Source of the DNA: Escherichia coli
Lineage (GTDB): Bacteria > Pseudomonadota > Gammaproteobacteria > Enterobacterales > Enterobacteriaceae
Assembly: GCF_044324875.1 (NCBI RefSeq)
Contig: NZ_CP172185.1
Length of the DNA stretch: 64,000 nt
Direction: 5' to 3' (one strand)
Shown: positions 33,477 to 35,244 of the stretch, in pieces
How the letters are laid out: every line of letters starts with the position of its first letter
How positions within the stretch are numbered: the stretch's first letter is position 1
The notes under the pieces: model-generated
The model's database searches: none
Seen by the model: the letters and a program-made list of their open reading frames with translations, nothing else
Told to the model about the DNA's origin: nothing
Position numbers and translations under genes: made by a program

Positions 33477-35123
33477 TCAGTGGTAGTAGCCCGGACCACG
33501 CAGGTTTTCATGCTCTGAAGCATATGCCGGATGTTGTTCGCCCTGGCGGGATAATGGAAGCTCCAGGTTCTCCCGATGGTGACGCAGCAGATTGTCGATA
33601 AAGCGTCTGTCAGGGGCGTTATAGTGCAGGGCAACGTAACAGGCCTTTTCCAGCCGTTCCGGGCCGTATTTTTTCTGAAGTGCCAGCAGCCCCAGAACTG
33701 CACGATAAGCCAGTTCCGGATGGGGTTTTGCCTTCAGCATGGATTCAACCACCCGGCCTGTGGACGGGCCCGTACGTTTTCCCTGCTCGATCAGGCGTTC
33801 CGGTGTCCATGTCCCGTGCTGCCGGTGGCGCTCTGGCATGTGAAGCGGATTGGTTGTGTGTTTATATTCATGTGTGCTGCGCGGATGTTGCGCCACACAC
33901 TGCCCCTTGTGCCAGAGCTGTACCACCGACTGCCCCGCCTTCAGTGACAGACGCTGACCGACCAGTTCGTGTGGAACGGAGTACCAGTGACGGGCATATT
34001 CAACGTGGTAGTCAGGGCCAACCTTCACAGCTTTGTATTCCGTGTATTCATAAGGTGCCAGAGGCAGCGGAGAGAGTGCTGGCGCATCCAGTATGCGGAA
34101 GCGTTCTGCACGGGTTTGATTGCCGTACCCCTTCATTGGCCGGTTATTCATGTCTGTCAGTAACTCCCTAAGGCGCGCATTCAGCGCCCTGAGCGTGTGG
34201 AAGGTTTCATTACGGATGCGGGCAAGAAGCCATCGTTCAACGATGAGGACGCCGTTTTCTGCTTTTGGTTTATCTTTAGGTTTGCGTGGTCGGGCCGGGA
34301 TGATAACCGTGCCATAGTGCTCAGCCAGTGCCTGATAACTGTCGTTGATGACAGGCTCATATCGATCGGCCTTTTTCACTGCGCTTCTGAGGTTATCGGG
34401 GATGAGCAGCTTCGGTACGCCGCCCAGGAAGGTCAGGCAACGGCTGTGGGCATTTAACCATGACATCATGTCCTGACCTTCGCACGCTTCAACGTAGGTA
34501 TAGTTGGACGCCCCCATTACGGCCACGAAGATTGCCACGCGGCGTATCTCACCGGTGTCCGGATTAATAACAGGAACCGTAGGACCACAGAAGTCGATAA
34601 AAAGCTTTTCGCCGGCACGATGCTCCTGGCGCATGGAGAGACGTCGCGTTTTTTTCCACTCCCGGTAGCAACGGCAGAAGTGCGAGTATCCCATCGCTTT
34701 GTTACCCGCCTGTGCCTTGTATTCCATCCACAACAGTTGCCGCGTCACACCTGGTTTTCTCATTTCCGTATCGAAGTACAACATGTCAGGCATTACAAGC
34801 TCTGATGCAAAGGTGTCTTTGGGCGGAAAAATGAGTTTCTCCAGCGTGTCATGGGATATATCAGCAGGTAATGGCCATGACAGAGAAGAGGCTTTGAAGC
34901 GGGCAAGAACCTCAAAAACGGTTGAGGCGCTGATGTGTAACGTCAGTCCGATACAACGGTTAGTCAGCTTCTTGTCGAACTTGAGCTGAAGGATCTTAAA
35001 ACAGGTTTCCATAGTGCTCCTGGATTTTCTCTTTCTGGACATTGACGTCTCCACTGGTTTAAACACGGCAATGGAGACTGTGGTGAAAAGAGTTAATTCC
35101 CGGAGTGACTGGCAGGATGCCAA
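33477..35123 (-). CDS. istA: IS21-family transposase IstA (start codon uncertain; internal Mets possible)
   Basis: N-terminal HTH, DDE core, long C-terminal domain; followed by istB. Confidence 0.85.
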   Translation of the reverse strand: MASCQSLRELTLFTTVSIAVFKPVETSMSRKRKSRSTMETCFKILQLKFDKKLTNRCIGLTLHISASTVFEVLARFKASSLSWPLPADISHDTLEKLIFPPKDTFASELVMPDMLYFDTEMRKPGVTRQLLWMEYKAQAGNKAMGYSHFCRCYREWKKTRRLSMRQEHRAGEKLFIDFCGPTVPVINPDTGEIRRVAIFVAVMGASNYTYVEACEGQDMMSWLNAHSRCLTFLGGVPKLLIPDNLRSAVKKADRYEPVINDSYQALAEHYGTVIIPARPRKPKDKPKAENGVLIVERWLLARIRNETFHTLRALNARLRELLTDMNNRPMKGYGNQTRAERFRILDAPALSPLPLAPYEYTEYKAVKVGPDYHVEYARHWYSVPHELVGQRLSLKAGQSVVQLWHKGQCVAQHPRSTHEYKHTTNPLHMPERHRQHGTWTPERLIEQGKRTGPSTGRVVESMLKAKPHPELAYRAVLGLLALQKKYGPERLEKACYVALHYNAPDRRFIDNLLRHHRENLELPLSRQGEQHPAYASEHENLRGPGYYH

Positions 35124-35244
35124 TCAATGATCGGAAGCATGCCAAATCGTGATCGATTGTGATGCCAAACTGTGATCGGAGATGGATGCCAAATCATGAT
35201 CGATTCGAATGCCAAACTGCGATCGATTCAGATGCCATTTTGCA

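Follow-up and report, generated by a model that had tools for sequence, protein, structure and literature searches.

The DNA analyzed here (the window) is a stretch of 64,000 nt of Escherichia coli contig NZ_CP172185.1, and it contains two copies of an ISSso4-like element of the IS21 family, both on the minus strand. Copy 1 (2639 bp, with TG...CA ends) lies at positions 32606-35244, and copy 2, which is 100% identical, lies at 61134-63772. The identity runs slightly further, from 32606-35246 to 61134-63774, whereas the element itself ends at 35244; the last 2 nt of the shared stretch (35245-35246) belong by chance to the target duplications of both copies, so that the end coordinate of 35244 given in an earlier note on this DNA was exact. 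Copy 1 is flanked by the 6-bp target-site duplication TTTTGC (32600-32605 and 35245-35250) and copy 2 by TTGTCT (61128-61133 and 63773-63778). Duplications of 6 bp were also found at two relatives (L001 and L003); the range for the IS21 family is 4-8 bp. The ends (TGCG.../...TGCA) have the form 5'-TG...CA-3' typical of the family, with imperfect terminal inverted repeats. Copy 1 is inserted in the transposase gene of an IS66-family element, and when positions 32606-35250 were removed in silico, an uninterrupted ORF of 523 amino acid residues was restored, which, together with the exact identity of the two copies, fixed the element boundaries. That the two copies are identical and yet flanked by different 6-bp duplications shows that the element has transposed recently. 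Full-length, 100% identical copies were found on chromosomes and plasmids of many E. coli genomes; of 5,426 genomes of this species, 225 held a copy with a coverage of 80% or more.

The interrupted IS66-family element (32288-32605 and 35245-37548, minus strand) carries tnpA (36871-37548), tnpB (36524-36871) and the transposase gene split by copy 1. Elsewhere in the window, a pair of 1333-nt inverted repeats with 95% identity (15344-16676 and 50115-51447; probably two IS copies), a perfect 48-bp tandem duplication (20378-20473) and 99-bp tandem repeats in an apparent coding region (6198-6612) were observed. Rfam and tRNA scans of the whole window gave no matches.

The istA gene (33477-35012, minus strand) encodes a DDE transposase of 511 amino acid residues and is preceded by a Shine-Dalgarno sequence at 35017-35023; its coordinates match the PGAP annotation of identical copies. 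The istB gene (32705-33460, minus strand), recognized by profile matches, starts 16 nt past the istA stop codon and encodes an AAA+ helper ATPase of 251 residues. IstA matched the IS21-type transposase profile NF033546 with 284.7 bits (cut-off 160) over residues 9-317; among the Pfam profiles, Mu-transpos_C_2 scored 72 bits, and rve scored 32.1 bits, slightly below its cut-off of 32.6. IstB matched the helper ATPase profile NF038214 with 257.6 bits (cut-off 200) and PF01695 (IstB_IS21) with 205 bits. The IstA of the window was aligned with the IstA of IS5376 (PDB 8B4H/8Q4D) with an E-value of 8e-14 over residues 75-373, and no sequence alignment was obtained for residues 1-74 and 374-511. Residues 6-70 resemble the N-terminus of the IS66 accessory protein TnpA (NF038385, E = 9e-15, below the cut-off), probably because of a shared helix-turn-helix (HTH) domain. 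The earlier note had placed the repeats at the istA-proximal end of an IS21-family element; the passing of both NF033546 and NF038214, and the position of the repeat array 94-228 nt upstream of the istA ATG at 35012, agree with this placement.

The region 35100-35244 was found to consist of the array of motifs that had been claimed for it. When a 17-nt consensus (ATGCCAAAYYRTGATCG, up to three mismatches) was searched in the window, plus-strand matches were obtained in copy 1 at 35117, 35139, 35162, 35186 and 35209, in copy 2 at the same five positions of the array, and once per element, in inverted orientation, at the opposite end (32624-32640 and 61152-61168). The window total of 12 matches compares with 1.58 ± 1.11 expected and was reached in none of 100 shuffles, and all 12 matches fall within the ends of the two identical elements. 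Repeats that are far above chance, limited to the two element ends and inverted with respect to each other count in favor of binding sites. The earlier claim of at least five imperfect direct repeats before the terminus was thus confirmed by the five consensus matches in an array where 12 matches in the window stand against 1.58 expected, and the identical array announced for a second location was recovered at 63628-63772, the counterpart of 35100-35244 in the 100% identical copy. The repeats described by the earlier consensus are real, but the consensus is exact (no mismatches to the degenerate pattern) in just three of the five units; likewise, the count of five holds for the matches, but rises to six once the terminal ATGCCATTTTGCA and the stretch from 35106 are counted as parts of a series of alternating boxes. 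Tandem Repeats Finder reported a period of 23 (4.3 copies) and a higher-order period of 47 (2.4 copies) for the array.

The array is best described as an alternation of two boxes, A (WTTGGCAT) and B (CGATCA), that recurs about every 23 bp. Read as units of the form A-N5-7-B, it comprises six units with 3-nt gaps at the istA end (left array, 35106-35240, minus strand), as against three units at the istB end (right array, 32611-32675, plus strand, inward from the tip), which is the multiple direct repeat organization of IS21-family termini; in copy 2, the two arrays lie at 63634-63768 and 61139-61203. The left units, all on the minus strand, are U1 (35220-35240), U2 (35197-35216), U3 (35173-35193), U4 (35150-35169), U5 (35128-35146) and U6 (35106-35124), the last with a degenerate box B (CAGTCA). 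Counted from the tip on the istA strand, their A boxes start at nt 6, 29, 52, 76, 99 and 121. The left tip (35241-35244, minus strand) reads TGCA on the istA strand; on the plus strand of the window, the element ends in ...TGCA-3', with the terminal CA at 35243-35244. On the plus strand, the right units are U1 (ATTCCGCT-ctatt-CGATCA, 32611-32629), U2 (ATTGGCAT-cgaagtc-CGATCA, 32633-32653) and U3 (ATTCGCAT-ccatt-CGATCA, 32657-32675), with A boxes starting at nt 6, 28 and 52 from the tip. The left array is followed by an inner box, CTCCGGGAATTAACTCTTTTC (35085-35105, minus strand), which includes the sequence CTCCGGG, complementary to the istA Shine-Dalgarno sequence, and a similar box, ACCGGGAACTTAACTTTTTC (32676-32695), follows the right array. 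The sequence CCGGGAAyTTAACTyTTTTC is common to the two inner boxes, in inverted orientation, so the inverted-repeat similarity of the ends reaches beyond the repeats.

A tandem array can be cut in more than one way, and both A-N-B and B-N3-A are valid cuts. The B-N3-A register, in which the repeats of the earlier note become five copies and a partial one, yields five units and orphan boxes, and it is favored by its constant 3-nt gap, compared with the variable gap of 5-7 nt in the A-N-B register. The A-N-B register is preferred here because no orphan boxes are left at either end and because the first unit lies a few nt from the TGCGTA tip in the distant relatives ISRme9, ISBmu3, ISFK1 and a Klebsiella element. 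It also mirrors the repeat of IS5376, which has two boxes with a longer variable stretch between them, consecutive repeats almost abutting (PMC10122671).

The conservation of the units was assessed in seven elements whose 511-aa istA is intact; they stem from E. coli, Shigella, two species of Serratia and Klebsiella indica, and their IstA proteins are 85-100% identical. CGATC and TTGG.A were invariant in 35 units from these seven elements. The mean pairwise divergence was 3.8% at the 14 core box positions and 4.5% in the tip, and it amounted to 15% in the spacers, 19% in the 3-nt gap and 29.8% at the third-codon positions of istA. From these comparisons, the box positions are under strong purifying selection.

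Six units in the same register were found in all eight elements with a 511-aa istA (the seven above and an Enterobacter asburiae plasmid copy, from five genera), and in every copy with four or five units istA was truncated or frameshifted, a link drawn from few, partly related lineages. The copies with four or five units are those of two enterotoxigenic E. coli (ETEC) LT plasmids, pRHB06-C11_2, pSA53IncF, p35A2a, Buttiauxella, Rahnella and the E. asburiae chromosome. Damaged copies with six units were also observed, namely a Yersinia copy and the copies of Serratia sp. DD3 with a 1.3-kb insertion in the leader, and the oldest remnants have mutated cores. The ETEC plasmid variant corresponds to a clean deletion of 47 bp, that is, of two units. 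On the ETEC plasmids E873p3 and pEntH10407 (L025 and L027), the four-unit remnant, with istA truncated to 397 codons, lies about 1.1 kb from eltA, next to the heat-labile enterotoxin genes eltAB. In Serratia sp. DD3, the same insertion of about 1.34 kb, with a gene on the opposite strand, separates the array from istA on both contigs (L009 and L010), the element being otherwise intact with six units; the shared insertion suggests that the composite was copied as a unit. According to the earlier note, the number and spacing of the repeats could help to classify the element. The box sequences, the period of about 23 bp and the six-and-three plan do mark the ISSso4 clade, but the number of units varies from four to six among decayed copies, and because such copies lose units, the number alone is unfit for classifying individual copies.

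A 100-nt artificial junction of the right and left tips was also searched against the 5,426 E. coli genomes, and no abutted ends (tandem or circle junctions) were found. Judged by the 12 of them that were listed, the 21 records with high-coverage matches apparently represent a single pair of copies separated by about 440 bp and an 89-bp derivative with an internal deletion, for which one copy (H186) was examined. The derivative (1511-1599 of L028; chromosome of E. coli strain 550, NZ_CP058223.1) consists of 32 nt of the right tip and 57 nt of the left tip, keeps both tips and about 2.5 left units, and is flanked by a 6-bp duplication, TTATGT. Among the matches listed, it occupies a single place per genome in about 20 human isolates, H186 being the copy examined. 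It may be either a MITE-like insertion or the product of an internal deletion in situ. Its reading as a mobilized MITE was set aside, given that one place per listed genome, with H186 examined, gave no sign of more than one insertion.

The istA leader contains a conserved hairpin (GTCTCCATTG / CAGTGGAGAC, 35047-35078, minus strand) with one compensatory and several wobble changes. In the consensus leader fold of 10 relatives, the CTCCGGG sequence at 35099-35105 pairs with the istA Shine-Dalgarno sequence CCAGGAG (35017-35023); nearly all pairs of the fold are invariant in this alignment, so covariation lends them no support. In long or read-through transcripts, this predicted pairing could sequester the ribosome-binding site. 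A sigma-70 promoter scan of the array and its surroundings detected no promoter, and a relaxed scan gave weak matches only. When the right tip was inspected by eye for an IS21-style hybrid promoter across abutted ends, no convincing -35 element was seen. Since no sigma-70-like promoter was detected in or near the array, promoter occlusion is unsupported for the window element.

The closest known element is ISSso4, as represented by the copies on Shigella sonnei virulence plasmids (e.g., NZ_CP046285.1 and NC_007385.1), which shares the gene order, the tips and the six-unit left and three-unit right arrays in the same register. ISSso4 is 2638 bp long, compared with 2639 bp, and the two are 96.3% identical in nucleotide sequence over the whole element and 97.7% in IstA; the divergence of about 4% includes two differences within U6 and another within a spacer. 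The NCBI name for the IstB of the window allele is 'ISSso4 family'. Isoforms are delimited in ISfinder by roughly at least 95% DNA or at least 98% protein identity, and the window allele is borderline under this rule and may carry a name of its own. The caveat of the earlier note, that the repeats would be uninformative if the element were catalogued, applies here, since the window element is identical to catalogued copies. ISEc12 was considered as the identity of the element and rejected, as its IstA is 46.9% identical and its end boxes are different.

More distant relatives (ISEc12, ISAs29, ISRme9, ISBmu3 and ISFK1) encode IstA proteins of about 510 residues that are 42-47% identical to the IstA of the window. 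They have TGCGTA-type tips, as at the right end of the window element, two-box units with a period of 21-23 bp, and a larger number of units on the istA side than on the istB side, but their box sequences differ. In ISRme9, ISBmu3, ISAs29 and a Klebsiella element (L020, L021, L019 and L024), three or four direct units are followed by three or four inverted units before istA, an inverted block that the ISSso4 clade does not have. The repeats of IS21 are L1-L3 and R1-R2. ISMyo2 has three IRL and two IRR repeats (PMC4608216) and IS5376 has L1/L2 and R1/R2 (PMC10122671, PMC11208146), as would be anticipated from the earlier statement that multiple terminal repeats are a known trait of the family, and six plus three units stand at the upper end of what the family shows. 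Large arrays at the left end are likewise found in the related elements with a long IstA.

IS5376 of Geobacillus stearothermophilus is the IS21-family model with a solved structure. It shares with the window element a homologous IstA, ends made of direct repeats with two boxes each, and the terminal CA (PMC10122671, PMC11208146). [quoted passage not shown] The two elements differ in that IS5376 has two repeats per end within a 55-bp terminal repeat, a 400-aa IstA and 5-bp duplications, whereas the window element has six and three units with a 23-bp period, a 511-aa IstA, longer by about 135 residues at its C-terminus, and 6-bp duplications. Unequal sets of transposase sites, bound by tandem HTH domains, also occur at the ends of phage Mu (MuA sites L1-L3/R1-R3) and Tn7 (TnsB sites, three left and four right), where a subset of the sites forms the catalytic core (discussed in PMC10122671). 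Mu and Tn7 are unrelated to the window element, with other site spacing, additional proteins and, in Mu, an enhancer, so that the likeness is one of analogy only.

Taken together, the motifs are very probably sub-terminal transposase-binding sites within the left terminal inverted repeat, the element itself being an ISSso4-like member of the IS21 family. From the homology to the IS5376 IstA and the purifying selection on the boxes, we infer that the units are binding sites for the HTH domains of IstA. Each unit, about 20 bp long, carries the conserved boxes TTGGCAT and CGATCA, whose centers are spaced by roughly one helical turn. At each end, the outermost pair, U1 and U2, would position the IstA tetramer for cleavage at the terminal CA-3', and the cleaved ends would be joined to the target with the help of IstB, giving the 6-bp duplications. 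As two repeats per end suffice for IS5376 in vitro, four of the six left units would be supernumerary. U3-U6 would most likely be accessory sites, which might load IstA in cis or raise its concentration there, give the element two unequal ends, or allow IstA to shut down transcription entering istA.

For these four units, a role as a selected module, with exactly six units needed and the array acting together with the anti-Shine-Dalgarno leader as a device for IstA loading or titration and for autoregulation, is proposed tentatively and with less than even confidence; the requirement for exactly six is suggested by the eight of eight intact relatives that keep six and by the fact that every copy with fewer is dead. 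Alternatively, and about equally tentatively, U3-U6 could be mainly a regulatory operator array, at which bound IstA would block transcription into istA while U1 and U2 were enough for the chemistry, and which, with the anti-Shine-Dalgarno segment of the leader, would keep transposase expression low. The two-repeat requirement of IS5376 and the autoregulation proposed by its authors (PMC10122671) point this way, as do a right end that works with three units, the pairing of CTCCGGG (35099-35105) with the Shine-Dalgarno sequence in the consensus leader fold, and the 89-bp derivative, in which both tips and a target duplication persist with no more than about 2.5 left units. However, no promoter was located by the scans, the almost invariant leader pairs are without covariation support, and the derivative occurs at one locus only and may be a deletion formed in situ.

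Two further explanations address the repeats as such. IS10 and IS50 couple transposition to the passage of the replication fork through Dam methylation, and with a GATC in every unit, the binding of IstA could be sensitive to Dam methylation in the same way. The two arrays hold eight of the 13 GATC sites found in the element, CGATC is invariant, and the hosts are Dam-positive enterobacteria. The GATC of box B is, however, also present in ISRme9 (Cupriavidus), ISBmu3 (Burkholderia) and ISFK1 (Bradyrhizobium), whose hosts are not known to have Dam; this suggests that the GATC is a long-standing recognition element, and we consider an adaptation to Dam unlikely. It is more improbable still that the array is a selectively neutral minisatellite, left behind by slippage during replication or by unequal recombination between the terminal repeats, in which the outermost site alone is functional. 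Such an origin could explain the higher-order repeat of 47 bp (two units), the clean 47-bp deletion in the ETEC plasmids and the variation from four to six units among relatives, but across genera the boxes of all six units change at roughly one eighth of the rate of the third-codon positions of istA, and the intact elements all keep six units in register, the variants all being dead copies.

The observation of terminal repeats is correct but ordinary: a textbook trait of the family in a common, catalogued insertion sequence of E. coli and Shigella, with little that is new. Modestly new are the map at the level of boxes, the conservation of an inner box at either end, and the association of intact copies with six units. 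With the ends located exactly, the duplication known to be 6 bp long and the six-and-three units mapped, it is possible to annotate precisely the element and its remnants, such as those next to the LT toxin genes of ETEC plasmids, and the clade-wide presence of six left units in intact copies provides a testable hypothesis on accessory transposase sites. If the extra left units are indeed a selected module, a common E. coli element would offer a simple system in which to study the role of 'extra' transposase sites, which is also a question for Tn7 and Mu.
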